A DNA stretch of 64,000 bases from Blastocatellia bacterium (GTDB lineage: Bacteria > Acidobacteriota > Blastocatellia > Pyrinomonadales > Pyrinomonadaceae): NCBI GenBank assembly GCA_033856735.1, contig JAWVEM010000025.1:972-64971 (forward strand). The letters are read 5' to 3'. Made by a program: the position numbers and the translations under genes. Below are positions 8,764-35,293 of the stretch, piece after piece. Position 1 is the stretch's first letter, and the number at the start of each line of letters is the position of its first letter. Below the pieces are notes generated by a model, which was not told where the DNA came from, ran no database searches, and saw only the letters and a list, made by a program, of their open reading frames with translations.

Positions 8764-10002
8764 TTAGTTTCTTAAACGATGTACCTGCGCAAGCTGACGG
8801 TTGGGGAGCGAAGCGAGGATCTCGTTGATTCGGGTAGTAACTCCAGCGGTCTGTCTCGCAATGGCGGAATAGTGTTGCTCACGCCGTGTCCAGGAACCTT
8901 CGTGGTTGGACTTTTCTCTTTCCAATTCACCTCGTAATTCCTTTGTTCTGCTATCGATCACTTGTAAGGCGTTCTTGAACTCCTCGCTGCGGAGATAGCG
9001 ATACACTTCCTGGGTTTTTTCTGCTTTGCCCTGTTCGGATAGTTGAACGCGGGAAAGTTCCACAACCGCATCACGCAAAATGGACGCTAGATGATGCGCA
9101 AACTGTGGCGCTGCAACTATGACACCATCGACGATGCATATCCCCGACTGGCTTGGGGGAAGAACACGAGATACTAGGAGCCCACACCGCGTTCCTTGAA
9201 CTTCCATCGCTCGTTTCAGTTGGCGAACAAAGGCCGGCTGCCATTGATTTGTTCTCTTGCACTCATAAACTATGCAACCACAAGGCGCGCGGTCTTCAAT
9301 AATCATCTGGACGATATCGCCACCGCGCCGTTTTCGCTGAATATCGTCCATAGGGAACTGCCTTCGCAGGAGTTTTTCAAGCTCCTCTTCGCCTTCCGGG
9401 CCAAAATGGACACGATCGCGCGACTCCGCTCGTCGTTGCAGTTCCTCAATTTTTCGCTTCCAGATTTCAGCGTCGCGGTCACGACGTTCTTCAATCCTCA
9501 AACGTTTCTCCTCCTCTTTGCGAAGTTGTTGAGCAAAGGTTGCTTGAACCTTCCGAGCCGCCTCACGTTCAATGCGACGCTTCTCTTGGGTCGACATCGA
9601 ACTCTTTTCCGCCAATGCGGCTTTCATCTGTTTAGCACTCGACTGTAGTTCCTCTAATTCTTTACGAAGCTTGATCTCCGCCTTCTTAGCTTTCGCAGTT
9701 TCCTCAGCTGCGATCCGTTCTCGTGCGTTCTTCAACTGATTCCGTTCGCGAGCCAGTTTCTCTTCAGCTTGAGCTAGCTCTTTACGAAGCTTGATCTCCG
9801 CCTTCCTAGCTTTCGCAGTTTCTTCAGCTGCGATTCGTTCTCGCTCGCTCTTCAACTGATTCCGTTCGCGAGCCAATTTTTCTTCAGCTTGTGCAATCTC
9901 GTTTTTACGAGCGTCATCAATATGCAAGACGTTCTCATACTCTCGGCGTGTCAGAGAGGAGCCACAAAGCGGACAGTCGTAGGATTGATTATTATTTAGC
10001 AT
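8764..10002 (-). CDS. DUF2130-like protein: zinc-ribbon, long coiled coil and a C-terminal restriction-endonuclease-like domain
   Basis: CPLCGSSL at the N-terminus, then an ~150-aa charged coiled coil. The C-terminal FPMDDIQRKRRGGDIVQMI...CGCIVYECKRTNQW pattern matches the DUF2130 signature as I remember it. The start lies 2 nt after the upstream helicase stop. Confidence 0.65.
   Translation of the reverse strand: MLNNNQSYDCPLCGSSLTRREYENVLHIDDARKNEIAQAEEKLARERNQLKSERERIAAEETAKARKAEIKLRKELAQAEEKLARERNQLKNARERIAAEETAKAKKAEIKLRKELEELQSSAKQMKAALAEKSSMSTQEKRRIEREAARKVQATFAQQLRKEEEKRLRIEERRDRDAEIWKRKIEELQRRAESRDRVHFGPEGEEELEKLLRRQFPMDDIQRKRRGGDIVQMIIEDRAPCGCIVYECKRTNQWQPAFVRQLKRAMEVQGTRCGLLVSRVLPPSQSGICIVDGVIVAAPQFAHHLASILRDAVVELSRVQLSEQGKAEKTQEVYRYLRSEEFKNALQVIDSRTKELRGELEREKSNHEGSWTRREQHYSAIARQTAGVTTRINEILASLPNRQLAQVHRLRN
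9661..9900. repeat. Tandem 2 x 120-bp duplication inside the DUF2130-like CDS
   Basis: 9661-9780 versus 9781-9900 differ at 11 of 120 positions by my count. Each copy encodes a 40-aa unit: AQAEEKLARERNQLK.ERERIAAEETAKA.KAEIKLRKEL. Confidence 0.9.
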
Positions 10003-10004
10003 CG

Positions 10005-14845: not shown

Positions 14846-15211
14846 ATGGAAAACCAAAACGACATCGACAGTAAGGCCGCGACAGCAAACCCGCCTGAAA
14901 CAGAGGTTCTCGACGAACTAATCGACGAGATAATCGACCTTGAAGAATATGCGCAAGCCAATCGCAAGCCGCCGCGCGCCCGCGGTTACCGAATACGCAT
15001 CGACAAAACCAAGTATGAAGTCAAAGTGCCGAGCATGACAGGACGTGAGTTGCTGACGCTTGCAGGTAAATCGCCAGTGAGCAACTACATGTTAACGCAA
15101 AAGCTTCGAGGCGGACAGACACGTCGGATCGAGCTGGATGAAAGCGCCGATTTCACGACGCCCGGCGTTGAGCGATTCATGACTCTGCCTCTTGACCAAA
15201 CAGAGGGCTAG
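14846..15211 (+). CDS. Ubiquitin-like (multiubiquitin-family) protein ending in Gly
   Basis: Acidic N-terminus followed by a beta-grasp-like YRIRIDKTKYEVKVPSMTGRELLTLAG segment. The protein ends ...LDQTEG-stop. It is the first gene of the E2/E1/JAB operon. Confidence 0.65.
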   Translation: MENQNDIDSKAATANPPETEVLDELIDEIIDLEEYAQANRKPPRARGYRIRIDKTKYEVKVPSMTGRELLTLAGKSPVSNYMLTQKLRGGQTRRIELDESADFTTPGVERFMTLPLDQTEG

Positions 15212-22278: not shown

Positions 22279-23157
22279 TCATGTTGTGCGGCTTTTGATG
22301 ATCCGGAAGTCATAGAGTGCCACGCTCGCGGCAACGCCGTCCTCTGAAATGCCATACAATTCAATCTGATAATCACCGGTGGAAAGAAACTCCGAGGGAA
22401 TCCGTAATACAACAACGTTCACGCCCGACTCCGATTTCAGATTGTCGATGGTGAACAGTTCACGACCTTCCACGGTACGAACAACAGTACGATACTTGGC
22501 ATACTTGACAGCAGAAGAGAACTCAAGTTGAAGCTTAACAAGCTTGTTCTCTTTATTAAGAACGACCTTTCTTAGTTCGCCTCCCTCTCGTAGACGAGTC
22601 GGCTGAAGTGTCAGTGCCATTGAAACCTGATCAGTTGTGACTAACGGACGACTGTTGAGTTCCGCCAATTGACGTTCGATCCTCGCGCGTTCTTCATCGA
22701 CAGGAGCGGTCGCCTTCGGCAATATCAATCGGGTAATTTGGGGGGCGAAAAAAACAAAGAGGAGAATTGCCGCGAAAGCAAGTGTCACCCAAAACTTGTG
22801 TCTTTGAAAAAAACCTAGTGCGTTTCGCCATCGGTCTGCCACGGCCCAGGATTCGTGGCCAATCATTGGTTGCAGTTCTTTACCTTCAGCCACGTAGACT
22901 TCAAAAGCTTGGGCGATCATTAACTTTTGGCGTCTCTCATCATCTAAGAGAAAATTTTTCTGAAAGTCTTCACGTTCGCTTTCCGAAAGCCCATCAAAGA
23001 CGTAATCATCGATAAGATCGTCCTGAGCAACCCCCAGTCTTTCCGCGAACGCTTTGTCACAGACAATGCGTTCATCGACTTCCTCCTGTAATGGCTCCTC
23101 GAGTTCGGCGAGGAGGTACTTTCTCATTATGGTTTGTTCATTATCCGGCTCGATCAT
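22279..23157 (-). CDS. Anti-sigma factor-like single-pass membrane protein
   Basis: N-terminal YLLAELEEPLQEEVDERIV.D..F...L pattern, as seen downstream of ECF sigma genes, and one TM helix (FWVTLAFAAILLFVFFAP). ATG at 23157 follows GGAGGGA; the alternative start is 23184. Confidence 0.6.
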   Translation of the reverse strand: MIEPDNEQTIMRKYLLAELEEPLQEEVDERIVCDKAFAERLGVAQDDLIDDYVFDGLSESEREDFQKNFLLDDERRQKLMIAQAFEVYVAEGKELQPMIGHESWAVADRWRNALGFFQRHKFWVTLAFAAILLFVFFAPQITRLILPKATAPVDEERARIERQLAELNSRPLVTTDQVSMALTLQPTRLREGGELRKVVLNKENKLVKLQLEFSSAVKYAKYRTVVRTVEGRELFTIDNLKSESGVNVVVLRIPSEFLSTGDYQIELYGISEDGVAASVALYDFRIIKSRTT

Positions 23158-23186
23158 CGACGGTCCCTCCGGCGGGATTCTCATCC

Positions 23187-23753
23187 TTATATGCCAGCAA
23201 GCTCGATAATATTATCCTTGCCCGAGCGGTCAAGACATTGCAGGATGCACTTTGCCAACCGCGTCCTAATGCGAAACACTCGCGCGCGCAAAGCGCCGAC
23301 CTTGAGCCGTAGTTTATCCCCCATTTCCCGGTGGGAAGCGATTTTCGCTCGTTTCTCCTCTTTGTAGTAGCTAAGGATCAATTCCGAATTCCGACGCGGA
23401 AGCTCTGCAAGACACTGATCGAGACACCTTAGATAAGGCTCTAATTCTTCATGCGACGCCACTTCTGGCGGCGCTGGTACCGCTTTTGCTCGTTGACGAA
23501 AATACTCCCGCCTTACGTTTCTCGCCACACCGTAAAAGTAGCGCTCCTTGACTCCGACATAATTGGCCTTTAACCACGTCACCTTCTCGGCCACTCTATT
23601 AATAGTTTCGTCAGCCAGATCTTCGGCTTCGTCGCACTGTCGGTTCAGGAATACCGTTATGAGCCTGCGGCGAATTGCCTCATACTTTTCGCCTGAGTGA
23701 GCCCGATTTGGTTCAAGCCAATCGAGCAATCCGTCGAATTCTTCTTTAGTCAT
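23187..23753 (-). CDS. ECF-type RNA polymerase sigma factor
   Basis: Region 2 (AEDLADETINRVAEKV...YFYGVARNVRREY) and region 4 (ELILSYYKEEK...EMGDKLRLKVGALRARVFRIRTRL). Confidence 0.8.
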   Translation of the reverse strand: MTKEEFDGLLDWLEPNRAHSGEKYEAIRRRLITVFLNRQCDEAEDLADETINRVAEKVTWLKANYVGVKERYFYGVARNVRREYFRQRAKAVPAPPEVASHEELEPYLRCLDQCLAELPRRNSELILSYYKEEKRAKIASHREMGDKLRLKVGALRARVFRIRTRLAKCILQCLDRSGKDNIIELAGI

Positions 23754-23831
23754 TGTTCAGGCAGTGTTCTTTGGTTTCGTGATCGGCCTCGAAACAAGGA
23801 TAGCACCGCAAGCCATAACGGCAACGCGAAT

Positions 23832-26800
23832 TCAGGCCGTCCGCACGGCCCTGTGCCGCGTCGCGAGATAAGTGCCGGCAGCTAGTAACAGCATCACGCC
23901 GGCTATTATTAGTATGTGTTTCCAGTTCAAACGGTGAACACCAACCTCTTTTCTGTACTCACCTTGCAGAATAAATCCGGCCCAATAGAACGGTTCTCGC
24001 CACTGCGGTTGCCGTTGCATCTTAAGCTGGGCGGTCCTCAGCGCCGCGGCGGGCGGTAGACCATCTCGTAACATGGCCGCGTAAAAGTAAGTCATGAACT
24101 CTGCGGTAGCATTGTCATCAACCTTCCAAAGACTGGCAACTACGCTTTTCGCACCTGCGTACATGAAGCCACTTGGAAGACCAACTATTCCTTCCCCGTG
24201 AACGTTCTTGCCAAGACCTGTTCGGCAAGCACTCAATACCACCAGATCCGCGGATAGATCGAGACTATAGACATCGTGCATCCGCAGAAATCCGTTAACA
24301 TTCTGGCCATGCTCGTCAACCATTGAAAGAAGCACGCCGGATAGATCTGGATGCTCAACGTTAAGCAGTCCGTGAGTCGCGACGTGCAGAATTCGGTAAC
24401 CGCTCATTCCGTCGCTAACGAATCTTTGTTTGGTGGCTTCGAAACCAGTAGTAATCACTCCGTCACCAGACGGGACAAATTCCATGATTGCTTTCGCTTC
24501 GCGCAGCGTTGAAGGAAGACGCGGGATATGCAATGGCGTAGCAAAAGCGTTGAAATCTCTCGTTGCTGTAGAAAGATAGACGCCGGAAGTTTCACTTTCG
24601 GTGGAGTCAGTGTTTGCGGCCAAAACTCTGGGGTCGTCTTTCTCAAATACTGGATCAGCTATAACCGCAATTGTTTTGTTTGACGGTTTAAGCTCTTTTC
24701 TTTCACTGCGGAGGGCGGCCAGAGTCATCGCTGACGGAAGCATAACGATTTCGTGCGCCGAGACTAATGGCTGGTTCGACGGCGAGTCAGGCATCGGCAA
24801 TGCTTCAAAAGGAATGTAACGAAGAATCCCGTCGCCAACAATTAGAAGGCGCTTGGTCCCAATTCGCGAAGAAACTTGCCCAAGCAGCATGTTGCTTAGC
24901 ATTGTTGACTGGTTCTTAAATTCGATCGCCGCTTCACCTAATATTTTGTCTCGTTCCGTGGCCCCAAGATCCTCGCTTAGAGACTGTCTTATCGTGAGTG
25001 AGTCGTATACCTCTCTAGCAAGCGCCTCGATTGTGGCCCGATCCGGTAATTCATAACTCGTGATCTCGGTGCCGCTAACCACCCATAGGTAACTATGTTC
25101 ATCACCAAGCGCGAATTCCAGTAGTAGCGCGTCGTCTTCCGTCACGAGACTTTTTAGGTCTTCTGCGCGCAGTTGGTCCGGTTGGGTCAGAACCGCTCGA
25201 CGAGGGCTTTGTATTCGCACTTGTGCGCGTATCGCCTGATAGTCGATAGTAAGCGCATCGAGTTCTCGAGATAACTTGTCGGCGTCCTCTTGGGTGTGTT
25301 TTCCAGCCAACAGCCGTGCCTGGTATTCGGCCTTCTCGTCAAGTGTGCGCAATAGCTCCTGTTGCCGGGACAGGAGATCCGCGTAGGGAACTCCGCGAGA
25401 TTCAATTTTCTCAGTCAGAAGCGAATCCAAAAGCGAACGAGCGCTCGCTTTCTCATTCGCTAACAGTGCCGCCAATGCGTATTCACGATCGGGAAACTGG
25501 CTGTTTAAGTCCATTAACACACTAATATAGAGTTCATATTGATTATGTATTGATGAGAAGTAAGATGTGCGAAGCTGAGAGTTGTTGATCTTGGTACGCA
25601 ACGACTCGCCGATCGCTATCGAGTCTTGAATTAGTGACAGGGCTCCGGTCAAATTCCCCCGATCCCTTTCGGCATTGGCAGTATTGAAAAGCGTCAAAGC
25701 CTCACCATGCCGATCTCCAGTCTCTCGCATAAGAAGAAGCGCCTGCTGAAAGTTGGCGAGTGCTTCGGGTAAGTTATGTGAAGCTGTTTGGATATGTCCG
25801 ATGTCGTTTAGGACATAGGCCTCACTCCGACGATTGCCGAGTTTTCGGTAGATCTGCAAGGCAGCGTCGAACTGTTGGAGCGCAGGCATAACCTTGCCTT
25901 GAGAGAAATAGATCGTACCGAGCCCCTTCATCGCGTGAGCCTCAATTATACGATCGCCAACCTGGCGGCTGAGTTCCAGGCTCTCTTGGTAAAACTTAAG
26001 CGCCTGGGTGTTTTCTCCTTTCTGAAATAAAACCCTGCCAACCAGGAATTTGTTAAGGGCCACGAAATCGCGATTACCAATCGCTTCATAAAGCTGCAAG
26101 GCCCGAGAGTAGTTGTCGAAGGCTGCATCGTAATCATTTAGGTCTTGATACGCGCGAGCAACTCCGTTTAGTGCGGCCGCCGCCCCTTGCTTGTTGCCAA
26201 TTGCCCGAAAGTAGTCACCGGCTTTCTTGTGTAAATCGAGAGCTGTTTGCTCCTCTCCAAGCAATGAATGCACACCGCCCAACACAGTCTGTGCCAGCGC
26301 AGCACCGCGACCGTCATTGATGGATTGGAATAGCGCAAGGGAGCGTTCAAAGTACTCAGAGGCCTTTTGCACATCTCCAAGATCGCTGTGCGAATAACCA
26401 AGGTTTAGGAGTCCAAGCGCCTGGCCGTTACGCTCGCCGATCTCGGCGTATATAGAGTACGCTCGCTCGAACAACTCGATTGACTTACGCAATTCACCTA
26501 AGGAGTAATCAGCCTCACCCGTCGTATTTAACGCCTGTGCCTCCGCTCTCCTATAGGTGGCAGGCTGCCGAGACGCATCGATTCGATCGATCATGTCTAA
26601 CATCCTCTTGGCATATGAAAGCGCCTTTTGGTTTTCACCTAAGTAAATGTTGGTGTAGCCGAGCCCATTGAGCGCCGCGAGAACCCCCAATTCATATACT
26701 TTACCCTCGCTGATCGATAACGCCTTCTCATATTGCGCTAAACTCGCTTGGTATTGACTCAGCCCGAAGTAAACATCTCCCATCACGCAGAGGGCTTCCG

Positions 26801-27410
26801 CCGCTCGGCCAAATTCGCCTGCCGACTTCCACAAACGGACCGCCTCGTCGTATTTGGAGAGTGCGCTCATCTGTGCCGATTCATTATGGTGTTCCTGGAG
26901 TTCGTCTGCTTCTGCCATGAAGCGGTTCGCTTCGTCCGTCAATCGATTTCTCGGTGTCGTCGTCGCAATCTCGGCCACCTGTAATTCATATGCCTTCTCC
27001 CTGGCGTCGGTTTCAATCGACTTGACCTCGATGCGATAGGTCTGTGGGGTGTCAGTCGAAAACGAAAGCTGCAACGTGCCGTAACGTCGACCTAAGACTT
27101 CAAAGCATGACTGAGCTTCTCCACAAAAAGAAGCCACTAGCTGCAAGTCACCTTTGTTGATATCGATGCGTGCATGCTGCCCAGCCAAAAGATTGAGCGC
27201 ATATACTCGCGCTTCGCCGGCAGAAATCACGTCCGAGACTTTTTGTCCCGTGGTCAGGTTGTGTGGCTCCGAGGGAGACGCGGCTTGCGTCAAAGAAGAG
27301 GGCAATGGCGTACGCGTTGGGAATCCAGCGAAGTCGGTCAGAGCGAGGCAAACCGCGCCTAAGGACACCGATGCGAGGGTTCGACATAAAATTCTTGAGA
27401 GGAGTTTCAA
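23832..27410 (-). CDS. Exported TPR-repeat / CHAT-domain protease with a C-terminal membrane anchor
   Basis: Signal-peptide-like N-terminus and many TPR units (A...Y..AL.I....G). The CHAT dyad is ILHVATHGL and VVLSACRTGLG. The C-terminal TM helix is ILIIAGVMLLLAAGTYLA. The TTG start follows AAGGAA. Confidence 0.8.
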   Translation of the reverse strand: MKLLSRILCRTLASVSLGAVCLALTDFAGFPTRTPLPSSLTQAASPSEPHNLTTGQKVSDVISAGEARVYALNLLAGQHARIDINKGDLQLVASFCGEAQSCFEVLGRRYGTLQLSFSTDTPQTYRIEVKSIETDAREKAYELQVAEIATTTPRNRLTDEANRFMAEADELQEHHNESAQMSALSKYDEAVRLWKSAGEFGRAAEALCVMGDVYFGLSQYQASLAQYEKALSISEGKVYELGVLAALNGLGYTNIYLGENQKALSYAKRMLDMIDRIDASRQPATYRRAEAQALNTTGEADYSLGELRKSIELFERAYSIYAEIGERNGQALGLLNLGYSHSDLGDVQKASEYFERSLALFQSINDGRGAALAQTVLGGVHSLLGEEQTALDLHKKAGDYFRAIGNKQGAAAALNGVARAYQDLNDYDAAFDNYSRALQLYEAIGNRDFVALNKFLVGRVLFQKGENTQALKFYQESLELSRQVGDRIIEAHAMKGLGTIYFSQGKVMPALQQFDAALQIYRKLGNRRSEAYVLNDIGHIQTASHNLPEALANFQQALLLMRETGDRHGEALTLFNTANAERDRGNLTGALSLIQDSIAIGESLRTKINNSQLRTSYFSSIHNQYELYISVLMDLNSQFPDREYALAALLANEKASARSLLDSLLTEKIESRGVPYADLLSRQQELLRTLDEKAEYQARLLAGKHTQEDADKLSRELDALTIDYQAIRAQVRIQSPRRAVLTQPDQLRAEDLKSLVTEDDALLLEFALGDEHSYLWVVSGTEITSYELPDRATIEALAREVYDSLTIRQSLSEDLGATERDKILGEAAIEFKNQSTMLSNMLLGQVSSRIGTKRLLIVGDGILRYIPFEALPMPDSPSNQPLVSAHEIVMLPSAMTLAALRSERKELKPSNKTIAVIADPVFEKDDPRVLAANTDSTESETSGVYLSTATRDFNAFATPLHIPRLPSTLREAKAIMEFVPSGDGVITTGFEATKQRFVSDGMSGYRILHVATHGLLNVEHPDLSGVLLSMVDEHGQNVNGFLRMHDVYSLDLSADLVVLSACRTGLGKNVHGEGIVGLPSGFMYAGAKSVVASLWKVDDNATAEFMTYFYAAMLRDGLPPAAALRTAQLKMQRQPQWREPFYWAGFILQGEYRKEVGVHRLNWKHILIIAGVMLLLAAGTYLATRHRAVRTA

Positions 27411-27415
27411 GCTGA

Positions 27416-27691
27416 TTATTCCTTCTTGGAAACCACCGTTTCGGAATCGCGCAGAGTAACGGTGATTGGAGATTCCAGGCGGTCACGACTATCTGCGGGT
27501 TCGGAGAACTTGGGATTCTTATTCCTTAACATATCAAAAATCTCTATCGCTTTCTCCGGGCTTGCTCCTGTGAGTTCTACCTCATACTGCCCGTCGCGAA
27601 TCTTTATGCAGCGGCTGCTCTTACCTCGCAGAAACTCGACCAGAAGTGGACCGGCGGACTTAGAAAGAACGAGGCCCCCGCAGCCGACCAA
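27416..27691 (-). CDS. Small domain resembling an effector-associated constant component (EACC1-like)
   Basis: GGLVLSKSAGPLLVEFLRGKSS.CIKIRDGQYEVELTGASPEKAIEIFDML resembles the EACC1 pattern from memory. It has only a TTG start and overlaps the upstream Ubl ORF by 88 nt in another frame, so it is probably the 3' part of a frameshifted Ubl fusion. Confidence 0.4.
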   Translation of the reverse strand: MVGCGGLVLSKSAGPLLVEFLRGKSSRCIKIRDGQYEVELTGASPEKAIEIFDMLRNKNPKFSEPADSRDRLESPITVTLRDSETVVSKKE

Positions 27692-28020
27692 AACACCATC
27701 TGCCCCAGCTCGAACCAGTTCGAGCCTGGTCCGGCTCCCACCGCGGAGATCCCGATGTCGATACGGTCGCCGCCCACGACCCCGGCCTGTTCAAGAGTCA
27801 TGTTGGGCGAAATCGCCTTCTGCGTCCTTGCTACCAATAGATGATAAGGCTGACCGTCTGGTAACGATCGTAGAAACGATCCCGTGCCGTCGACATCACG
27901 TCCGAGTTCGTTGAGAATCTCTTGACCGGTGCATTGGGTACTCACGTCAGCAACCAGGCTTATCGGCATATCCGTGGGGTGCACAAAAACTATCTCAATT
28001 GCAGGATATCCTTCACTCAT
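27604..28020 (-). CDS. Ubiquitin-like beta-grasp protein (paralog of 34173..34484) with a C-terminal extension
   Basis: About 40% identical over ~90 columns to the Ubl at 34173-34484 by hand alignment. Both have ...[VI]GAG at the end of the fold. ATG follows GAGGGGG. Confidence 0.65.
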   Translation of the reverse strand: MSEGYPAIEIVFVHPTDMPISLVADVSTQCTGQEILNELGRDVDGTGSFLRSLPDGQPYHLLVARTQKAISPNMTLEQAGVVGGDRIDIGISAVGAGPGSNWFELGQMVFWSAAGASFFLSPPVHFWSSFCEVRAAAA

Positions 28021-28311
28021 AAATTCGCCCCCTCATTAAACCTGATTAGAGTATTTGTTAGTAGCTGACGATCAAATACGGAGAGGAGATCTCCCAACTC
28101 GAACGAGTCGCTTCCGGCCGTCGCAAAGCCGAGCCACTATCACCCAGATTGCAAGAAAATGGAAGTCTAAGCCTGAGCGAGGGTTCGTTACCTTAGCAGA
28201 GATTAATGGACGCTTGACTAAAGAGCGGGCTGGCGGTTAAGTCTCAAAGTCAACTTTGCGTAAGATTCGAGAATCAAGCTATTGTCTTGGGAGATTCGTT
28301 AATAGCGCCGT

Positions 28312-28350
28312 CGCAATAAGAAAGCAGCGGTAGGGATGCCCACCGCTGCT
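28312..28350 (-). terminator. Intrinsic terminator for the minus-strand small gene
   Basis: AGCAGCGGT (28323-28331) pairs with ACCGCTGCT (28342-28350). On the minus strand the stem is followed by TTTCTTATT. Confidence 0.6.
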
Positions 28351-28446
28351 TCGAGGTACATGGCTTTAAGGAACTGACGAATCCGCAAAAACAAAAACCG
28401 ACGTCTTCGGTTCGACTGTTGACTATACGATGAACGGACGCAATTT

Positions 28447-28641
28447 CTATCCTTTCAGAGTGTCGTCAGATTCCCCAAGGCTCTTTGATCGGTCGTCACC
28501 GGCTACCCCTCCTCGAGCACGCGTGCTCCCCGCCGCGTCACCCGAGTCGGCGGCTTTGGATCGATCTTCTGGGGTCGCTCCCCCTCGGGTTTTTGATTCT
28601 TTCTCTTTGGAACCTTGTTCGTTAGTGATCTCGGTGCTCAT
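28447..28641 (-). CDS. Small highly charged Gly/Asp/Ser-rich protein (KGG-type stress-protein-like?)
   Basis: 64 aa. AAGGAG lies 8 nt upstream of the ATG and a terminator hairpin lies downstream. The gene is isolated between two divergent operons. Confidence 0.5.
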   Translation of the reverse strand: MSTEITNEQGSKEKESKTRGGATPEDRSKAADSGDAAGSTRARGGVAGDDRSKSLGESDDTLKG

Positions 28642-28914
28642 TTAGAGTTCTCCTTCTGATTATCGGTTGTAAGACCGGTGTCAGCCGCATGAACGCGTAC
28701 CTGCCGGAATCCGCAGATGTCGCGCGTTTTGGAACTTCCACCACTATTTCATGATTTCGCCACGACGAACGTTACGCATGGCCGCGTGAGCCGGTGCGCC
28801 TGCATAACGTTTTGAAGCGGCCGGCATATCAGTTTAGAGATTTGGCATTTTCCAGAATTGGCATTCGGCTTTTGTCCGGAGCGGCTTGGAAGTCTGAATG
28901 CGCCAGGAGAATAA

Positions 28915-31900
28915 ATGGAACTGCCCGAAGAGTTAGCCGAGCAAGAACTATTCGAGGCGCACATCGCTGTCGACCCATCACAACCTATCGATGAGGCTGG
29001 TGCAGATCCTGCATCGCTGGAAGAACAACACAACGAAGACGAGGCAATCGGCGACGAAGAAGGGGAAGCTGACATTCCTGCAGAGCAAGTTGCCGAAGCT
29101 GATCAAGCTGAAGAGGAGGACCAGGAGGAAGAGCGACCAGGAGAAAAAAGACTCAAAGTCTTCATCAGTTACAACCGGAATGACAACGACGGGGCCATCG
29201 CTGATCGAATCTACGACGAGCTGAGCCAACAATATGACGTATTCTTAGACCGACGCACGATCAAGATCGGTGAATCATACGAAAAAGTCACCGAAGACTG
29301 GCTGGACACCTCCGATTTCGTAATCGCCCTGATCTCAGCCAAATCGGTCGAGACTTCCTTCATAAAAGCCGAGTTACAAAGAGCCTACGAGCGCTACAAG
29401 ACTGAGGCGCGTCCGACCGTCATACCCTTGCGCATCAATTATGCCGGCCCCTCCGGGCTGAGATTAGATGCTTACATCGGGCACTTTCAGCGAATCGATT
29501 GGGATAACAGAAACTTCGACTGGTTACTCAGGCAACTACACGCAGGACTTAGCAATAAATTAGCCGCGATCACGAAAGCCGTTATCACCGGCACAGACAT
29601 CATTCCCATAAGCGATACTCTGCGCGAGCGTTATGCTCAAGCCTTTGTCGAGCCACGTGAGTTGATCAGCACCCCCGTGTCGTTCGACGAGAAAAGGTTG
29701 TTGTGGATCAGCGGCGATGCGGCGGTCACAAATTATGTCGCCCTCTCGATTGCCGCGACGATCACAGACAAGTCATTATACGAAATTACGAAACAGCGAA
29801 AATGGTCTGAGATCAACAGCACTTTGATTAGTGACTCAACCATCGTTCTGCGTGACGCCCTGCCAGCCTCTTATCTCCAGGAATCCGGCGCGATCGGTGA
29901 ATGGCACGCTCTCCGCGCAATCATTGAACGAAACAACATCATTATTGCCACTGCTCCTAATGATGAATTCGAAAAGTTGGAGCAGGAACTGCTGAGATAT
30001 CAGTTCACTGACTACCAGCATCGCCAGGTCGATGCCGGCTCGTATAGCGATGACTCAAAGTTGCTGATCTTTTCTCGACTGATTGAGCATCTCTTCAAAA
30101 CCGGTGAGTTAGATGAGGACAAATATGCTTGGGCTACCGATCTAGTAAAAGACCCAAACGAAACAGATTCAGTCGGCGGTCAAGGTCGCGCGCGGGCCAT
30201 CGAAAGACGCCGGCGCGACATGCGTAAGAAGTTCCGCGAAAACCTCGGCCGGTGGTCGCCTGCCGACATAGTACGGTTCGTACTCAGCTTGTCCCAGGTG
30301 GACAGCGAGAGTGATATCACTCGGCTCCTGCAGCGCTCCGCGGCGATTGAGGATGAGATTCGCTCGTGGTTCCTCGCGCTTGACGATTCCACTCGATGTT
30401 TCGTCATGACGGTGGCTCTTTTCGCCAACCTTGATCATCAAGAATTGTGGGAATACTACAAGTCCATAGTCGAACATTTACGTCATCTCGATGCAAATCT
30501 CCGCTTGCTGCCCTTCGGCATTTGCCGTAAGCGTGCTCATCCTTATGTTTCTTTGGATGGGCCGATTGCGCTGGACGAGCGCGTGGCTGATGCCGTCAGA
30601 CAGGAAATAGCTCGTAGCTATCGCGAATACTTCGTTGAGTTGACTCCGAAACTCAAAGACTGGTCCGTGCCACCGGGGCGAAGTCCAAAAACCATCGAAC
30701 AGCGCAATCAGCGCAAGCCGAGGATTGAAGAAACAAGGGAAGCGCGAATGGCGATCGCACGCATGGTTGGTATAGCCGCTAGGCTTGGTCTCGACGACCT
30801 TACAGAGATTCTCGACTACTGGGCCACGGATTCGAATATCCAGATTAGAAAATCAGTCGCGTTCGCTTTTGCGGAAACAGCCAAGAGTCCGACCGGAGTC
30901 AACTATGCCCTTAACCTCCTGGAGCGATGGAGTCTCGACATTAACTCGCACGGTCAAACTAGGTGGCGTGCGTTGGCCGCCGCTCACGCTCTTGGCTTCG
31001 TCACTGCCGCGGCCAATGATGCGTATGTGACGGTGCGAGCGCTCCATTGCCTCCGTACCTTCGCCCGGTCACGGCGACAGGACGCGCGCTTCTACGCTTC
31101 TATCGCCGTCCGCCAAGTCGCACGATATGCACCTTTATCGTCGACTGAAGGAGCGCTCGGCAGGCTGGCGAAAGACGATCGAACTGAAGTCCGCTTGAAT
31201 GTCGCGGCCGCACTCAACGAGGCGCGTGCATACGACGCTGACACGGCCGATGCCTTAATTGAACGATGGGTTCTGTCCGATGATCCCAACCTCCGGTGGG
31301 TCGCGCTTTGCGGGATTGTGACGAGTCGCAAAAGTCAGAATGGTACAAGCCCCAAGAAGTACGAGCGGCTCCTGGACTTTCTCGACAGCGAAGAATCCGC
31401 GTTGAGTCTGGCCAGCGTCCTGAGTGAAACGGTGACGGACGATCATTACGGGCAGGTTGCGAAGGACAGTCTCGGTTTCCTCGCAGAACATGCAAAAGAG
31501 GCGCAGTGGACAAATTTCGCGGCCGGCCTCGCGATTGTCTCCACTAGCAAACTGGACAAGGAAATATTGCCCCTTCTGCGTTTTTCAGACGGCCCACCGT
31601 TCGAGGAACGCGCCGTCGATGTTAGGCGAGAGGTTTTGCGGAGAAAACTAGGCTCGCCGGCGCGATTCCTGGCTACATTGAGAGCCTGGCTTAACGGGAA
31701 AGACACGCAACTTGAACTCTTCAGAGCCCTAACACAATTGCTCGATGTCACCCCGGATAGTTCACGATCTGAGGTTATTGCGGCGATGGCCGAACAGTTT
31801 TGTGCGGAGCCCGCGAGTGTGAACGAAACACTTTCCGCACTTCGAATCCTCGCCCCAGCACACTTTGAAACCCTCGCACAAGGAGTACGCAACGAAGCGT

Positions 31901-32487
31901 TTCGGCGATCACTTGAAGATTCGGCGGGTTTTGTGGCGCTGGCTGGCGCGCAACTTGCTCACGTTGAAACTGCAGACGACACCGCAGAAGCAATTGTGCG
32001 ATTAGCCCGAGATGATCCACCAGGCTCGCGCGAACAGATGATGCGGGCGCTGCTCGAGGCGGATGAGCAAGCTCCGCAAATGACAAAGAACCTCGTTGTA
32101 ATTCTCCGCACCGGGGAACCAGACCTCGTCCGCATCGTCTATGAATTCAACTATCGGCTAATAGAAAAAGCGATGACGGTTCCCGTGACCTTTCCCGCAT
32201 TTGTGCTGGAGACGGTTCGAACCGATGACGACGCCATCAGCTTGTTGAATTACCTGGCTGAGCCTGAGCCGCAGGGGAACCGAAGTACTTTGGTTCGAAC
32301 ACTGGTTGAAGCCAGGCTCCTGGAGGCGAATGGCGTCGACAAGCTCCTGGCCCTGCCGGCCCTGAAGCAGTGGACCAATCTCGCTTCGCTGCAAGCCGAG
32401 GTTGCGCGTTCATATTACCTGCGGAGAATTTTTGCGCCCCGGTTTGTGACAAAGTTGTTCAGCAAGAGGAGCATCGAGAATTGGTAG
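28915..32487 (+). CDS. TIR-domain protein with a degenerate NTPase-like middle region and C-terminal HEAT/ARM repeats
   Basis: About 80-aa acidic low-complexity N-terminus. TIR region: KVFISYNRNDNDGAIADRIYDEL...VFLDRRTIKIGESY...DFVIALISAKSVETSFIKAELQRA. HEAT-like units: D.N..IR..VAFAFAE and DDRTEVRLNVAAALNEA. Confidence 0.75.
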   Translation: MELPEELAEQELFEAHIAVDPSQPIDEAGADPASLEEQHNEDEAIGDEEGEADIPAEQVAEADQAEEEDQEEERPGEKRLKVFISYNRNDNDGAIADRIYDELSQQYDVFLDRRTIKIGESYEKVTEDWLDTSDFVIALISAKSVETSFIKAELQRAYERYKTEARPTVIPLRINYAGPSGLRLDAYIGHFQRIDWDNRNFDWLLRQLHAGLSNKLAAITKAVITGTDIIPISDTLRERYAQAFVEPRELISTPVSFDEKRLLWISGDAAVTNYVALSIAATITDKSLYEITKQRKWSEINSTLISDSTIVLRDALPASYLQESGAIGEWHALRAIIERNNIIIATAPNDEFEKLEQELLRYQFTDYQHRQVDAGSYSDDSKLLIFSRLIEHLFKTGELDEDKYAWATDLVKDPNETDSVGGQGRARAIERRRRDMRKKFRENLGRWSPADIVRFVLSLSQVDSESDITRLLQRSAAIEDEIRSWFLALDDSTRCFVMTVALFANLDHQELWEYYKSIVEHLRHLDANLRLLPFGICRKRAHPYVSLDGPIALDERVADAVRQEIARSYREYFVELTPKLKDWSVPPGRSPKTIEQRNQRKPRIEETREARMAIARMVGIAARLGLDDLTEILDYWATDSNIQIRKSVAFAFAETAKSPTGVNYALNLLERWSLDINSHGQTRWRALAAAHALGFVTAAANDAYVTVRALHCLRTFARSRRQDARFYASIAVRQVARYAPLSSTEGALGRLAKDDRTEVRLNVAAALNEARAYDADTADALIERWVLSDDPNLRWVALCGIVTSRKSQNGTSPKKYERLLDFLDSEESALSLASVLSETVTDDHYGQVAKDSLGFLAEHAKEAQWTNFAAGLAIVSTSKLDKEILPLLRFSDGPPFEERAVDVRREVLRRKLGSPARFLATLRAWLNGKDTQLELFRALTQLLDVTPDSSRSEVIAAMAEQFCAEPASVNETLSALRILAPAHFETLAQGVRNEAFRRSLEDSAGFVALAGAQLAHVETADDTAEAIVRLARDDPPGSREQMMRALLEADEQAPQMTKNLVVILRTGEPDLVRIVYEFNYRLIEKAMTVPVTFPAFVLETVRTDDDAISLLNYLAEPEPQGNRSTLVRTLVEARLLEANGVDKLLALPALKQWTNLASLQAEVARSYYLRRIFAPRFVTKLFSKRSIENW

Positions 32488-32549
32488 AGATTCGACCATA
32501 ACGTTTTCTTCTCAATTTCATAGTAAGACGGAGACGAAGCAAATTCTTA

Positions 32550-32918
32550 ATGTCTGGATGGGAGATCGCGGCAATCGTTGCCTTGGTATTGGCGTTGCTT
32601 ATCGGCGTCGCGGCGATCATCGTTTACGTAGTCGCGGAAGATCGATTGCCTCCGAGCCGGCAGCAGGAAAGGCTGCCGCCGATCGTCTTTCGGCATGAGC
32701 CATTCGGTACGATCACGCCGGGGCTGATTTCATTTAGATCAAGCGAGGCACATCGACGGGTTACGCCACGCCAATTCAACTTTCGGAATGATGGTAATGA
32801 CATCAGGACTAGAGAGATCAAAGAGGACCTCGACTTGTATTGCAAGCTAACCGGTAGACTGGCACGCGATTGCCGATGTGAGTTCTGTAGGAAACTGAAG
32901 GAAAAACTTGGAACCTAA
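32550..32918 (+). CDS. Small membrane-anchored protein with a C-terminal Cys cluster
   Basis: N-terminal TM helix (IAAIVALVLALLIGVAAIIVYVV) and C-terminal CKLTGRLARDCRCEFC. It overlaps the E1 start by 11 nt. Confidence 0.5.
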   Translation: MSGWEIAAIVALVLALLIGVAAIIVYVVAEDRLPPSRQQERLPPIVFRHEPFGTITPGLISFRSSEAHRRVTPRQFNFRNDGNDIRTREIKEDLDLYCKLTGRLARDCRCEFCRKLKEKLGT

Positions 32919-34176
32919 TAACGACAAAGTGTTTTCGCGCGAGCGATTGGCAGGATACGACCCGGAACGCATGAGTCGTAGCTGCGTGTTAGTGGTAGGG
33001 GCTGGCGCTCTTGGACAAAACACCGCAATGAATCTCGCATTGGCGGGCTTAGGGGAACTGCGGATTGTCGACAAGGACATCTTTGAAGAGCACAACCGCA
33101 CGCGTAGCCCGGCCTATCCTCTGCCTGATGAGGTGGACCGCTACGGAACCGACAAAGCCGGTGCCGTCGCTCGTAAACTGCGGCGCCTAATGACGGCAAA
33201 GCACCCTTCGATGTACTACGCAAATAACTGGATTCAAGAATTGGGTGACGGAGCGTTTCGCGGCGTGTCTGTCGTTGTGTCGTGTGTCGACTCGCAACTC
33301 GCGCGTGCTTACCTGTCGGACAAGACGAGACAGCACGGGTTGCCTTTTATTGAAGGCGGCTTTCAGGCTGCGAACATCCGGCTGACCTGCTTTCCCGCGG
33401 CGCGCCCGGAAATCACAAAGACGCTGCCATGCTGGCGGTGTTCTCACCCAACGGTCGAAGGCAGCTTTTCCTGTGCTAACTACGCGCAGCAAGCAGAAGC
33501 GTTGGGCGTGATCCCGGCAATCCAAAATGCGGCCGCGGTATTGGGTGGCCTGCAGGCTGAAGCCGCAATACAAGCTGTTCATCACGAACCGACCGGTAGC
33601 GAGACTGCCCGATGTTTTGAGTTCAACGTAAGAACGTGGAAGGCCCGAACCGTAGAGCTTGCAAAGGATCCGAAGTGCCCGGGCCTCCATCGCCTGCTTG
33701 ATTCGCAGCCGATAATACTACAAACGACCGCGGACGATACGGTGGCGGAACTGCTTGTCGAAATGGGCGAGCACCTGGGAACGCAGGCATGCATCTGGCT
33801 ACCGATGAAAACGTATTCCAAGTATTTGTCGGCGATGCCATGCAGTAACCCCAAGTGCCGGAACATCGTCGCAGTGCGTGGCCCTGAGTGGCGCTGGAAG
33901 ATGAATCCGCGTTGTTCGGACTGTGATGGACCGTTCTTACCGATGCGTGACGGGGCCGGCGTCTCAAGTTACGCGGTACCAGAATTGAGTTTGAGCTCCA
34001 GCCCTGAGGTGTTGGAAGCGACGTGTCGAACAATTGGCCTGGCTCCTCTTGGGCTTGTTGCCGGAGCCGAGGCAGCCTCGACGCAGGCCCACTTTGATGA
34101 CGCCCCCCCGCCGGCCCTATTTCAATTGCCCGGATCGTTGGATGAACTTTATCAATCAGGAGAAAACACACCATGA
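32908..34176 (+). CDS. ThiF/MoeB-type E1-like Ubl-activating enzyme
   Basis: VLVVGAGALGQNTAMNLALAGLGELRIVDKDIFEEHNRTR Rossmann motif, plus paired CxxC motifs (CWRC; CPKCRN...CSDCDG). The stop overlaps the Ubl start (ATGA). Confidence 0.8.
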   Translation: MEPNNDKVFSRERLAGYDPERMSRSCVLVVGAGALGQNTAMNLALAGLGELRIVDKDIFEEHNRTRSPAYPLPDEVDRYGTDKAGAVARKLRRLMTAKHPSMYYANNWIQELGDGAFRGVSVVVSCVDSQLARAYLSDKTRQHGLPFIEGGFQAANIRLTCFPAARPEITKTLPCWRCSHPTVEGSFSCANYAQQAEALGVIPAIQNAAAVLGGLQAEAAIQAVHHEPTGSETARCFEFNVRTWKARTVELAKDPKCPGLHRLLDSQPIILQTTADDTVAELLVEMGEHLGTQACIWLPMKTYSKYLSAMPCSNPKCRNIVAVRGPEWRWKMNPRCSDCDGPFLPMRDGAGVSSYAVPELSLSSSPEVLEATCRTIGLAPLGLVAGAEAASTQAHFDDAPPPALFQLPGSLDELYQSGENTP

Positions 34177-34484
34177 CCGAAGAAACACTCGAGATCCACT
34201 TCATTCATCCTCACACCAGCAAAAGGCTGGTGGCAGATCTCAGTCCGAACTGCACCGGAACCGATGCCTTGCACGCGCTTCTGAGCGCGGACGGCGGCGA
34301 TGGCCCATTTCTAAGTCAGGCCGGCGGCCAAACCTACGAATTGTCTTTGGAAAGAACCGGTACCGCGATTACTCCCAACATGACATTTCGCGAGGCCGGA
34401 GTGATTAACCGCGACATTATCAACATCGCTCCGACCGTAATTGGCGCTGGGTCAGTCTTCAGATCAGGACCGGGACAGACCTAA
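34173..34484 (+). CDS. Ubiquitin-like beta-grasp protein (BilA-like), precursor form
   Basis: 103 aa. The beta-grasp-like fold ends in ...PTVIGAG and is followed by a 13-aa tail, SVFRSGPGQT and preceding residues. It sits between the E1 and E2 genes. Confidence 0.7.
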   Translation: MTEETLEIHFIHPHTSKRLVADLSPNCTGTDALHALLSADGGDGPFLSQAGGQTYELSLERTGTAITPNMTFREAGVINRDIINIAPTVIGAGSVFRSGPGQT

Positions 34485-34567
34485 CGGTCTCACGTTGACC
34501 GTGTGCGAAGAATTGCTTTCCCGGGTCTTGCTGAACCAATGAATTGTTGCCGCAAAGGAGAATGGCC

Positions 34568-35269
34568 ATGACCGAATCGCTGGACGAGAGTGACCGTCGT
34601 TCAAGGCTCACTTACGACTATCAAACCGCGATGATGATGAGGCCTCTAATGGAGGCCGAGGCATACCGCAATCTGGACGACTTGTTGGCGCGCCGCAACC
34701 GCATAGACTCCGTCGCGGACGCGTATTTAGCGACGCACTATCGCGTTCTCTATCGGGTCAGAACGCTGATTGGCCCCGCGCGTTATTGGGATGAAACGAC
34801 AGTGCGCTTTGATCTCTTTGCCAACAATGATTATCCAATGAACGAACCCGCCAGTTGGGTCATCGACGGTCCAATGCCGTGGTCGCCGCATTTTCTGGAG
34901 GGTCGTGAGATCTGTATCGGCCCAATTTGGAAACGAGCCCAAGGCAGGATTCTGCTCTGTGAACTGATGATTCATGTGGCCAGGTTGCTGAATTTCGATG
35001 AGCCCCCCTACGAAGATCCCGAGTATGGAGGCTGGCAACCAGATGCGGTGGAATATTGGGAGACGACGCTTGGCAGACAGCCAATTAGCAAATTGGTGTA
35101 TCCCTCTGTACCACGTCGCGTCCCGCCGCCAGCGGAACCGGAACCTGAACAGCCGACAAGAGCGATCGTCTTCCGTAATACGATTGAATGGAGCCCACCC
35201 AGCATCAGGATTAGACCACAAGCTCCCGCTGAGTCAGCTTCTTCGCTGATCAAAGTCAGGCCTCAATGA
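34568..35269 (+). CDS. E2-like ubiquitin-conjugating enzyme homolog
   Basis: PWSPHFLEGREICIGPIW resembles the E2 HPN...C active-site region. ATG at 34568 lies 7 nt after AAGGAG; the ORF opens at 34544. Confidence 0.6.
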   Translation: MTESLDESDRRSRLTYDYQTAMMMRPLMEAEAYRNLDDLLARRNRIDSVADAYLATHYRVLYRVRTLIGPARYWDETTVRFDLFANNDYPMNEPASWVIDGPMPWSPHFLEGREICIGPIWKRAQGRILLCELMIHVARLLNFDEPPYEDPEYGGWQPDAVEYWETTLGRQPISKLVYPSVPRRVPPPAEPEPEQPTRAIVFRNTIEWSPPSIRIRPQAPAESASSLIKVRPQ

Positions 35270-35293
35270 AATGGCTTAGACCCAACGTTACTT

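Follow-up and report, generated by a model that had tools for sequence, protein, structure and literature searches.

The open reading frame (ORF) at 27604-28020 on the minus strand of a 64,000-nucleotide stretch of DNA from a Blastocatellia bacterium of the family Pyrinomonadaceae (contig JAWVEM010000025.1; the whole stretch is called the window) encodes a ubiquitin-like protein (Ubl) domain. An earlier interpretation from the letters alone, the sequence-only reading, took its product for an orphan free Ubl. The ORF is instead the front of a gene of about 200 codons that has been split into two frames by a one-base deletion at about 27661. Intact versions of this gene encode a single protein, in which a Ubl domain is followed by a second half with a helix rich in small residues. 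This second half is probably, to judge from profile comparisons, a remote relative of the membrane-active half of EACC1. It is called EACC1-like here and is not a demonstrated member of the EACC1 family PF19953. We hold the architecture of the fusion gene, its frameshift and its synteny with high confidence.

Intact homologues are 190-235 residues long, or about 270 residues where an N-terminal extension is present. The order of their parts is Ubl, G-[AG]-G, a helix of about 30 residues rich in small residues, then strand-strand-helix and in some cases a further strand. After the G-[AG]-G comes a short acidic linker, followed by …E-L-G-x-M-L-F-W-S-A-A-A-A-S-I-F-L-K-S-A-A-P-I-L-V-E-F-L…, a basic turn, two strands and a helix. 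The closest subfamily has in addition a variable acidic linker and a final strand, …P-I-T-I-T-L-R-D-S. Five intact homologues (P0006, P0009, P0011, P0019 and P0034) are colinear with both frames of the window, where the parts are as follows.

27730..28020, minus strand: Ubl domain of the beta-grasp type, residues 1-97, with the G-A-G junction at its end; paralogous to the free Ubl of 34173-34484
27661..27729, minus strand: linker P-G-S-N-W-F-E-L-G-Q and first half of the small-residue helix (…FWSAAGASFFL), in the Ubl frame; positions 2-21 of profile A6
27659..27663, minus strand: frameshift site …TTT CTA/AG… (break at the slash), one base fewer than in intact orthologues, which read L-K
27604..27658, minus strand: out-of-frame tail S-P-P-V-H-F-W… to the stop codon, with no counterpart in any homologue
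27416..27661, minus strand: rest of the EACC1-like module, in the other frame, with the stop codon at 27416-27418; positions 19-99 of profile A6 (E 3.6e-22)

Profile A6, which represents the C-terminal module, matches the window twice, at 27661-27720 in the Ubl frame and at 27434-27670 in the other frame. The two matches overlap at 27661-27670, and because they change frame there, the break is placed at about 27661. The region beyond it encodes K-S-A-G-P-L-L-V-E-F-L-R-G-K, a beta hairpin, a helix, a variable linker and the final strand P-I-T-V-T-L-R-D-S. Its identity to the counterparts in the related loci L008 and L011 is 56-60% (tblastn). A single ORF runs across the break point in L008, L009 and L011, and intact single ORFs of the gene are found in L008, L009/L010, L011, L012, L013 and L027. 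The end of the ORF at 27604 is not a natural gene end, as its last 19 or so codons are out-of-frame read-through past the frameshift. A frameshift in the run of T at 27690-27693 was also considered and rejected, because the Ubl frame still matches the family through …FWSAAGASFFL.

A missing base may also be an error of sequencing or assembly, with the gene intact in the organism. The source of the window is a metagenome-assembled genome (MAG) of 4.8 Mb in 544 contigs, and single-base indels occur in such assemblies. Nevertheless, the same base is missing from an independent JGI contig, L001, which represents a second haplotype. Besides two other indels, 54 substitutions separate it from the window, and 53 of these fall within the TPR part of the neighbouring CHAT gene. 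The frameshift is therefore not an assembly accident, since a different haplotype has it too. The site is, moreover, not a long homopolymer, and an intact gene in this organism is extremely improbable. L001 also carries a further deletion at 27694, which is a separate second event restricted to that contig.

The two halves could, alternatively, be functional as they stand. In that case a 138-residue Ubl with a hydrophobic tail would be accompanied by a C-terminal module of 91 residues, made from a TTG codon at 27691 or by ribosomal frameshifting. Both halves are indeed open, and the break is common to two haplotypes. Yet the sequence TTC TTT CTA AGT is not a slippery heptamer of the form X-XXY-YYZ, and programmed frameshifting was rejected for want of one. 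The 91-residue ORF begins inside the helix, with no ribosome-binding site seen, and the extra deletion in L001 ends the frame even earlier. Intact orthologues are single ORFs, and the gene is broken at a different place in L024, a more distant locus and the source of protein P0061, where an independent break lies inside the Ubl domain. A functional split is very unlikely.

This genome most likely no longer yields the effector half as one protein. The product in the window is at best a Ubl, the junction, two thirds of the helix and 19 unrelated residues, with the hairpin-helix part not joined to it. Annotation should thus describe a disrupted Ubl/EACC1-like fusion instead of a 138-residue Ubl. 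The three independent disruptions (at 27661, at 27694 in L001 and in L024), together with the absence of the gene from the locus L032, are compatible with a gene that is costly or toxic and subject to relaxed or negative selection.

The fused Ubl and the free Ubl of the window are true paralogs. BLASTP aligns the products of 27604-28020(-) and 34173-34484(+) with 41 identities in 90 columns (46%), two gaps and an E value of 9e-21. The sequence-only reading had counted about 39 identities over about 90 columns by hand, and every shared block that it named (EI.F.HP, LVAD.S..CTG, FL, RT..AI.PNMT...AGV and the terminal [VI]GAG) is present in the BLASTP alignment. A six-frame search of the whole 4.8-Mb assembly finds just these two copies (E 3.6e-92 and 3.6e-15). 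The island had been credited with three Ubls. A third does exist, at 14846. It is encoded in a 6E/Bub-type operon and belongs to Pfam Multi_ubiq, and its sequence shows no relationship to either paralog (hhalign probability 1%).

Neither of the two paralogs nor the C-terminal module has a family in Pfam, NCBIfam or PADLOC. In a word-index homology search the 138-residue ORF matched solely its own near-copy, and neither Ubl is present in 60 relatives checked, 36 of which belong to the same genus. A search of 1.84 billion representative proteins with a joint profile of both Ubl domains yielded 108 relatives at E <= 1e-3. Among these are many free Ubls of 80-130 residues and about 20 proteins with a second half. 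A tree of the Ubls was made by a quick search on 93 columns, with most forks open, and in it the two copies of the window share one starred clade of 29 rows.

A beta-grasp fold is predicted for the minus-strand Ubl domain from an AlphaFold2 model of the intact orthologue P0006 (195 residues, alignment of 20 rows), whose Ubl domain is 55% identical to that of the window. In the model, a beta-grasp domain spans residues 7-90, with a predicted local distance difference test score mostly above 90. A disordered junction at 94-111 and a 31-residue helix at 101-131 are followed by hairpin strands at 136-142 and 145-150, a helix at 154-169 and a terminal strand at 186-192. A Foldseek search of the PDB with this model gives EccD as the top match (E 3.5e-5), besides Caldiarchaeum ubiquitin, YukD, SUMO-1 and 8tyx, a bacterial Ubl in a Ubl-deubiquitinase complex. 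The template modelling (TM) scores, normalised to the target, are 0.7-0.8 for ubiquitin, SUMO and YukD.

The likeness of the second half to EACC1 is one of sequence profile, element order and gene layout. EACC1 contains a single conserved helix that is hydrophobic, has small residues clustered at its centre and lies between alpha+beta elements, and it has been described as standalone or fused to EAD1 or EAD2. The system is defined by its two-gene layout, with EACC1 located 5' of a caspase gene (Kaur et al. 2020, PMC7159879). The partner caspase-like protease cuts EACC1 ahead of the helix and so detaches an N-terminal inhibitory part; toxicity resides in the C-terminal fragment alone, and this fragment permeabilises liposomes (bioRxiv 10.1101/2025.11.14.688446). 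In the fusions, the helix with its central small-residue patch is present as …F-W-S-A-A-A-A-S-x-F-L-K…. The strand-helix-strand inhibitory part of EACC1 is missing, and the Ubl domain is found in its place.

For the comparison, 38 proteins of PF19953 were gathered, with the true EACC1 of a genome of the same family as the starting point. Between profile A6 and 37-38 of these proteins, hhalign finds 66 colinear columns that cover helix, hairpin and helix, with P 5.9e-4 and a probability of 29%. The score of 26.3 is reached by none of 60 block shuffles, whose maximum is 16.9, and the reversed profile scores 15.2. A feature search of the ESM Atlas with the C-terminal module returns EACC1 clusters as its top three matches (0.84-0.85), which is a lead only. 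In the AlphaFold2 model of the true EACC1 P0111, a strand-helix-strand part and a disordered linker at 40-52 are followed by a helix, two strands and a helix. The order helix-strand-strand-helix is thus common to the second half of P0111 and the C-terminal module of P0006.

The gene layout can be compared in the same way. A canonical EACC1 (PF19953, 36.6 bits) paired with an N-terminal C14 caspase occurs at L039:5439-7357 in genome G409, of the same family, where the Peptidase_C14 gene lies 5 nucleotides downstream. Both canonical EACC1 and a Ubl-capped version therefore occur in this bacterial family. A tblastn search of plasmids with the true EACC1 gave no matches. The fusion gene, for its part, is followed by a CHAT gene of the caspase superfamily, and the distance from the stop of the one to the start of the other is 5 nucleotides in the window, 21 in L008, 6 in L011 and 7 in L009. 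The pairing of the fusion with a caspase-superfamily gene is not seen in L027 or L012.

The fusion gene heads the minus-strand arm of a two-arm locus. This arm consists of the fusion, a TPR-CHAT protease predicted to be exported, a sigma factor of the extracytoplasmic function (ECF) type and a membrane protein. The sequence-only reading had placed the minus-strand copy upstream of these genes, which is correct. The arm lies back to back with a TIR-HEAT gene and a cassette of genes for a cysteine-cluster protein, an E1, a free Ubl, an E2 and a JAB protease. The cassette starts 4.5 kb from the fusion gene, in the same locus and not adjacent to it. The other genes of the two arms are listed here.

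23832..27410, minus strand: TPR-CHAT protease (Pfam CHAT 1.6e-72, TPR_12 2.8e-50), starting 5 nucleotides past the fusion stop
23187..23753, minus strand: ECF-type sigma factor (Sigma70_r4_2; TIGR02937 at E 1.4e-10, just under the cut-off)
22279..23184, minus strand: single-pass membrane protein of 301 residues, presumed anti-sigma factor, with one transmembrane segment at 133-151
28915..32487, plus strand: TIR-HEAT protein, divergent from the fusion arm and kept in all related loci (TIR_2 3.2e-19)
32550..32918, plus strand: protein of 122 residues with an N-terminal transmembrane helix and a C-x-L-T-G-x5-C-x-C-x2-C cluster
32908..34176, plus strand: E1 of the ThiF family (ThiF 4.2e-29)
34173..34484, plus strand: free pro-Ubl paralog, …G-A-G with a 10-residue tail
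34544..35269, plus strand: E2-like (UBC-fold) protein of 241 residues, UQ_con-like in the ESM Atlas
35294..36448, plus strand: JAB/MPN metalloprotease with a transmembrane helix at 233-251 (Prok-JAB 8.8e-9, JAB 1.1e-7)

As claimed earlier, only the plus-strand copy has adjacent E1, E2 and JAB genes; it lies between the E1 gene (32908-34176) and the E2 gene, which is followed by JAB (35294-36448). The E2 is, however, not the product of 32550-32918, which has a transmembrane helix and a cysteine cluster instead and is possibly a membrane zinc-ribbon or E3-like adaptor. The E2 is encoded at 34544-35269. In the ESM Atlas, 25 of 30 feature matches of this protein are UQ_con clusters (score 0.93), its stored model has TM scores of 0.59/0.80 against UBC-fold clusters, and it is 47% identical to the middle part of P0027, a fusion of Ubl, E2 and TIR. 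PADLOC 2.0 gives weak matches of the CBASS type (E1-E2/JAB) for the E1 and JAB and none for the Ubls or E2, with a library that may predate models of the Bil system. The anti-sigma role of the 22279-23184 product is presumed from its position only, and the protein is kept beside the sigma gene in L008, L011, L027 and L032.

The proteins of the window were compared by tblastn with related loci, which stem from a few metagenomic contigs belonging to one lineage. The complete two-arm arrangement, including an intact fusion gene, is found in two of these loci, L008 and L011. One strand carries a small disordered ORF, the fusion, TPR-CHAT, the sigma factor and the membrane protein; the other carries TIR-HEAT, the cysteine-cluster protein, E1, Ubl, E2, JAB and a DUF4407 gene. 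In L008, the fusion gene lies at 9849-10436 and the JAB gene at 1003-2157. The short contigs of L009/L010 and L024 hold TIR-HEAT, the small ORF, the fusion and CHAT. In L027, where the fusion belongs to the subfamily of about 270 residues and is about 35% identical, one strand carries in order the fusion, a further free Ubl, a small JAB, TIR-HEAT, E1, Ubl, E2, JAB and DUF4407. Here the sigma gene, together with its membrane partner, diverges from the fusion, and CHAT and a C14 caspase lie about 8 kb upstream.

In all four loci that can be judged (the window, L008, L011 and L027), both paralogs occur together with the E1/E2/JAB cassette, TPR-CHAT and the sigma/anti-sigma pair. A search for the paralogs in homologous islands, as had been suggested, thus finds them together wherever the locus is long enough, and the fused copy is neither absent nor decayed in all related islands, as intact copies exist. 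In a further locus of the same family, L032, the genes for CHAT, the sigma factor and the membrane protein lie back to back with those for TIR-HEAT and the cassette, and a fusion gene is absent. Among named genomes, the cassette is found in the MAGs of two Pyrinomonadaceae, three Solirubrobacterales and one Planctomycetota, and a Gemmatimonadetes MAG has a partial E1 match only. In phyla other than that of the Pyrinomonadaceae loci, the cassette occurs alone. A related-locus search with the close fusion alignment found three short metagenome contigs and none among genome contigs. The fusion is an accessory of one cassette lineage, often lost or broken.

The two arms can also be compared with L008 at the protein level. 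For the conjugation arm, identity is 97-99% for E1, Ubl, E2 and the cysteine-cluster protein and 90% for JAB. It is 50-65% for the fusion, CHAT, the sigma factor and the membrane protein, and 71% for TIR-HEAT. In comparison with L008, the island (22279-36448) is a mosaic, with arms exchanged as modules.

The junction between the Ubl and the second half lies at the point where the free relatives end. Fifteen free Ubls of the family end exactly at …G-A, position 90 of the hidden Markov model (HMM), and others have tails of 1-36 residues, with 10 in the free copy of the window. Every EACC1-like fusion runs on from HMM position 90 with G-P or G-x. Because the fusions continue where free Ubls end, the EACC1-like module sits in place of the removable tail. 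None of the 20 fusions deviates from the G-x-G junction. The minus-strand copy of the window has the conserved G-A of the family's C-terminal position (…V-G-A-G, residues 94-97, HMM position 89-90). It has no free C-terminus, as about 100 residues follow the G-A in intact orthologues and 42 in the truncated ORF.

Fused and free Ubls are interleaved on the tree. The starred branches force at least 3 changes of label between fused and free, and the most parsimonious count is 14; a division into two old clades, one fused and one free, was considered and is not supported by the tree. Within a locus, the identity of the fused and the free Ubl is 81% in L027, 57% in L011, 54% in L008 and 45% in the window. 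The two have their last strand and tail in common, for example in L008 (I-N-I-A-P-S-V-V-G-A-G and I-N-I-A-P-T-V-I-G-A-G) and in L027 (R-L-G-G-L-G-G-G and R-L-G-G-Q-G-G-A). This likeness within loci fits one machinery that handles both. Cross-talk of this kind had been proposed for the two Ubls of the window. The likeness agrees with that part of the proposal, while charging of the fused Ubl by E1 would not be possible unless the G-A-G junction were cut first.

Other fusions connect the same parts. The cysteine motif of the 122-residue protein is fused N-terminally to the Ubl/EACC1-like proteins P0034 (E 4e-4; cluster at residues 84-111, with a transmembrane helix) and P0043 (E 0.004; residues 46-62). 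A Ubl-JAB fusion, P0010, exists beside the Ubl-E2-TIR fusion P0027. The Ubl domain of this family is in general joined to many effector-type partners (P0010, P0021, P0027, P0035, P0063, P0076, P0089, P0105, P0004 and P0060). As read from sequence, the partners are JAB, E2-TIR, CHAT, SLATT-like modules with two transmembrane helices, and a DUF4062/TIR-like domain located before a conjugatable Ubl. Tandem poly-Ubl arrays also occur, some in proteins of more than 2000 residues.

The conjugation enzymes would be located at the membrane, where the fusion is expected to act, since JAB and the cysteine-cluster protein each have a predicted transmembrane helix. In the fusion, there is no lysine or arginine between the junction and the helix, and 4-5 follow directly after the helix. 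From this charge pattern and the positive-inside rule, the helix would insert with its N-terminus out. Such an insertion is feasible for the short new N-terminus that a cut would leave and not for a folded Ubl of 95 residues.

In the model that these features suggest, a Ubl cap keeps the fusion latent as an effector. JAB, with its predicted membrane anchor, would normally trim the C-terminal tail of the free pro-Ubl, and it would also cut the fusion at the same position, G-A/G, a site of the deubiquitinase type. The cut would release a Ubl with a free C-terminus, which may serve as a second conjugatable substrate for E1 and E2. It would likewise release the EACC1-like fragment, with a short acidic N-terminus and a basic C-terminal flank. 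This fragment could then insert into the membrane with its N-terminus out and oligomerise into a pore, as the cleaved C-terminal fragment of EACC1 does. The TPR-CHAT protein and the sigma/anti-sigma pair would be an envelope-facing switch that induces the arm. The bulk of TPR-CHAT is predicted to lie outside the cytoplasm, because the protein has a signal or anchor segment and a C-terminal transmembrane helix both in the window (hydrophobic segments at residues 7-25 and 1161-1179) and in L032.

Taken as a whole, the architecture together with a Ubl-capped latent effector has about an even chance of being the right explanation. Cleavage by JAB is a tentative part of it, with clearly less than an even chance. 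More doubtful is the full consequence, in which cleavage of the deubiquitinase type licenses a membrane pore former, so that one cut arms a cell-killing module and supplies a second conjugatable Ubl. In a more speculative variant, the linear fusion is a tripwire that a phage-encoded protease directed against Ubls may also cut.

The protease could also be a different one. A caspase-superfamily protease, either the adjacent TPR-CHAT or the cytoplasmic C14 protein of the island, might activate the module, with the Ubl as an autoinhibitory or adaptor head that is never conjugated. The fusion gene is directly 5' of CHAT in five loci, as EACC1 is 5' of its caspase gene (PMC7159879), and EACC1 is activated by its partner caspase-like protease (bioRxiv 10.1101/2025.11.14.688446). 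The translation of CHAT contains a histidine and a cysteine that would form the catalytic dyad (…A-T-H-G… and …S-A-C-R-T-G…). A D-D-R motif is found in the small neighbouring ORF and in the C-terminal module linker of P0009, and four of eight modules have D-R-L before the last strand, which would suit a clan-CD protease with arginine at P1. The topology speaks against CHAT, as its catalytic domain is predicted outside the cytoplasm and the Ubl/helix junction inside. Likewise, the junction G-[AG]-G-P is of the deubiquitinase type rather than the caspase type, and it coincides with the natural end of free Ubls. In L027, moreover, a Ubl and a JAB gene come next after the fusion, with CHAT about 8 kb away on the other strand, and L032 keeps CHAT, the sigma factor and the anti-sigma candidate without the fusion gene. 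Activation by CHAT or C14 is on this evidence unlikely, but it is the main rival of cleavage by JAB.

The Ubl head may not be cut at all. It could be a docking domain, similar to the effector-associated domains of conflict systems, that brings E1, E2, JAB or Ubl-binding partners to a membrane protein, with no Ubl released. The same Ubl domain is fused to CHAT without a G-A-G junction in P0105, and to SLATT-like modules of two transmembrane helices with poor junction motifs in P0063 and P0076. The top Foldseek matches are to EccD, in which an N-terminal Ubl is permanently joined to transmembrane helices. However, the G-x-G junction never varies among the 20 EACC1-like fusions and lies where free Ubls end, the linker past it is predicted to be disordered, and a pure docking domain would not need a processing motif. 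A permanent docking head is rather improbable. The sequence-only reading had offered a non-conjugated adaptor as its alternative to cross-talk, which is a possible role.

Several results weigh against the preferred model, the JAB-cleaved, Ubl-capped effector. PF19953 matches neither five intact close fusions nor three proteins of the 270-residue subfamily (hmmscan, E up to 1), and in a search of the whole genome it gave no match in the window. Profile A6, in turn, fails to find the true EACC1 of G409, and the hhalign probability is only the 29% given above. Breaks in the window, in L001 and in L024 and the lack of any copy in L032, a syntenic Pyrinomonadaceae locus, mark the fusion gene as dispensable. 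Co-occurrence rests on four loci of sufficient length, all from one lineage of acidobacterial type. The fused and free Ubl of the window itself, at 45%, are the least alike of the four pairs, and the two arms differ in history (90-99% identity to L008 in the conjugation arm, 50-65% in the CHAT arm). Canonical EACC1 is cut by a neighbouring protease of the caspase family, and the immediate neighbour here is the CHAT gene. Cutting of the junction by JAB, conjugation and toxicity are all proposals.

The fusion can be set beside five kinds of known system. The closest in its second half is the EACC1-caspase system (Kaur et al. 2020, PMC7159879; Evans et al. 2025, bioRxiv 10.1101/2025.11.14.688446). 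Both have a small 5' gene, a helix of small residues followed by strand-strand-helix, a disordered linker before the helix, where EACC1 is cut, and a caspase-superfamily protease gene tightly downstream. They differ in that a Ubl of 95 residues replaces the strand-helix-strand inhibitory part of EACC1, the junction is G-A-G-P and not an Asp site, and the partner is a TPR-CHAT protein, predicted to be exported, and not a cytoplasmic protein with an N-terminal caspase domain. The close subfamily also has an extra C-terminal strand after a variable linker, and PF19953 is blind to the module.

In its first half, the fusion resembles the Bil (bioRxiv 10.1101/2023.09.04.556158; 10.1101/2023.09.26.559546) and Bub/6E (PMC11601603) systems. 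These likewise combine a Ubl, a ThiF-type E1, a UBC-fold E2 and a JAB in a defence-type island, and their Ubl is made as a precursor that needs C-terminal trimming. Here, in contrast, the mature end is G-A rather than G-G or G, JAB and the cysteine-cluster protein are anchored in the membrane (predicted transmembrane helices), the Ubl family has no model in Pfam, NCBIfam or PADLOC, and a second Ubl copy is joined at its C-terminus to a membrane module. Bacterial Ubl fusions have been described with N-terminal domains or with C-terminal E2 domains, in a paper in which the word "transmembrane" is absent (PMC11601603). No description of a Ubl/EACC1-like fusion was found in the searchable literature.

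A comparable gene architecture can be found in eukaryotes. Ubiquitin fusion precursors there include Ub-L40, Ub-S27a and polyubiquitin. As in the present case, a Ubl is in frame with an unrelated C-terminal protein, the junction is at the mature C-terminus of the Ubl, and a deubiquitinase is expected to split the precursor into two functional products. Here the partner would be a membrane-active effector instead of a ribosomal protein, and the processing is only inferred. The likeness to EccD of type VII secretion is one of fold and layout only. EccD has 11 transmembrane helices and is not known to have a processing motif. Its structures (7b9f, 6umm) have the N-terminal cytoplasmic Ubl followed by membrane helices in common with the fusion.

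The regulatory part of the minus arm finds a parallel in the DdvA-DdvS pair of Myxococcus xanthus (PMC11506125). There, the TPR-CHAT is the periplasmic domain of the anti-sigma factor DdvA itself, has an incomplete active site and controls a defence island through an ECF sigma factor. The shared feature is an extracytoplasmic TPR-CHAT (predicted, in the window) coupled to an ECF sigma factor beside defence genes. The difference is that CHAT is here a separate protein with a His and Cys dyad (23832-27410), beside a separate membrane protein (22279-23184).

One protein joins two recent fields, that of bacterial Ubl conjugation in antiviral defence (Bil, Bub) and that of small pore formers activated by proteases (EACC1). 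The Ubl/EACC1-like fusion is a new combination of two known kinds. We know of no earlier case of ubiquitin-type processing that arms a bacterial death effector. If the JAB of the cassette cuts the junction, this would be the first to our knowledge, and a prokaryotic parallel to the ubiquitin-fusion genes. A poorly understood cassette would also gain a concrete output that can be assayed, namely cleavage and membrane leakage. Intact, frameshifted and fusion-less versions of the same island are natural controls.

Two smaller elements lie upstream of the fusion gene.

28131..28165, minus strand: conserved block of 35 nucleotides, a candidate promoter or operator about 110 nucleotides upstream of the fusion gene; conserved in the window, L008, L011 and L024
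28447..28641, minus strand: small disordered ORF of 64 residues with the motif R-G-G-x3-D-D-R-S-K; orthologues at the same position in L001, L008, L009, L011 and L024

The 35-nucleotide block is present as a single copy in the window, with 0 chance matches expected. A second copy was sought in the window as a sign of shared regulation, and none was found. The block is unlike a standard sigma-70 promoter or a typical ECF promoter, and a scan for sigma-70 promoters performed no better than on shuffled sequences.

The motif of the small ORF, in the form [SA]-R-G-G-x3-D-D-R-S-K-[SDG], recurs solely inside this system. It is found near 28497 in the window, at L008:9274, at L009:754, 826 and 2186, at L011:9586 and at L024:1762. 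In proteins it occurs just before the Ubl domains of P0005 (residue 181) and P0044 (residue 23), and in the variable linker of the C-terminal module of P0009 (residue 197). The ORF of the 64-residue type that lies between TIR-HEAT and the fusion gene in L009 carries two copies. For the core D-D-R-S-K, all matches in 665,306 six-frame residues belong to this system. The motif could be a site for a clan-CD protease or an acceptor lysine.

Where a fusion gene precedes CHAT, as in the window, L008, L009, L011 and L024, the signal segment of the protein is followed by an extra domain of about 130 residues (approximately residues 40-170, 27410-26990 in the window). As read from the sequence, this domain resembles a beta-sandwich of the pre-peptidase C-terminal type; it has no model match. 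The CHAT of the fusion-less L032 (L032:1518-4850) is without it and matches in tblastn from residue 143, an anecdotal case of one.

Finally, the 53 substitutions in CHAT that separate the window from L001 are confined to the TPR part of the gene (24495-26900). The rest of the 5.1-kb overlap, about 2.7 kb, contains one substitution and two indels. This distribution suggests recombination, or diversifying selection on the presumed sensor repeats.

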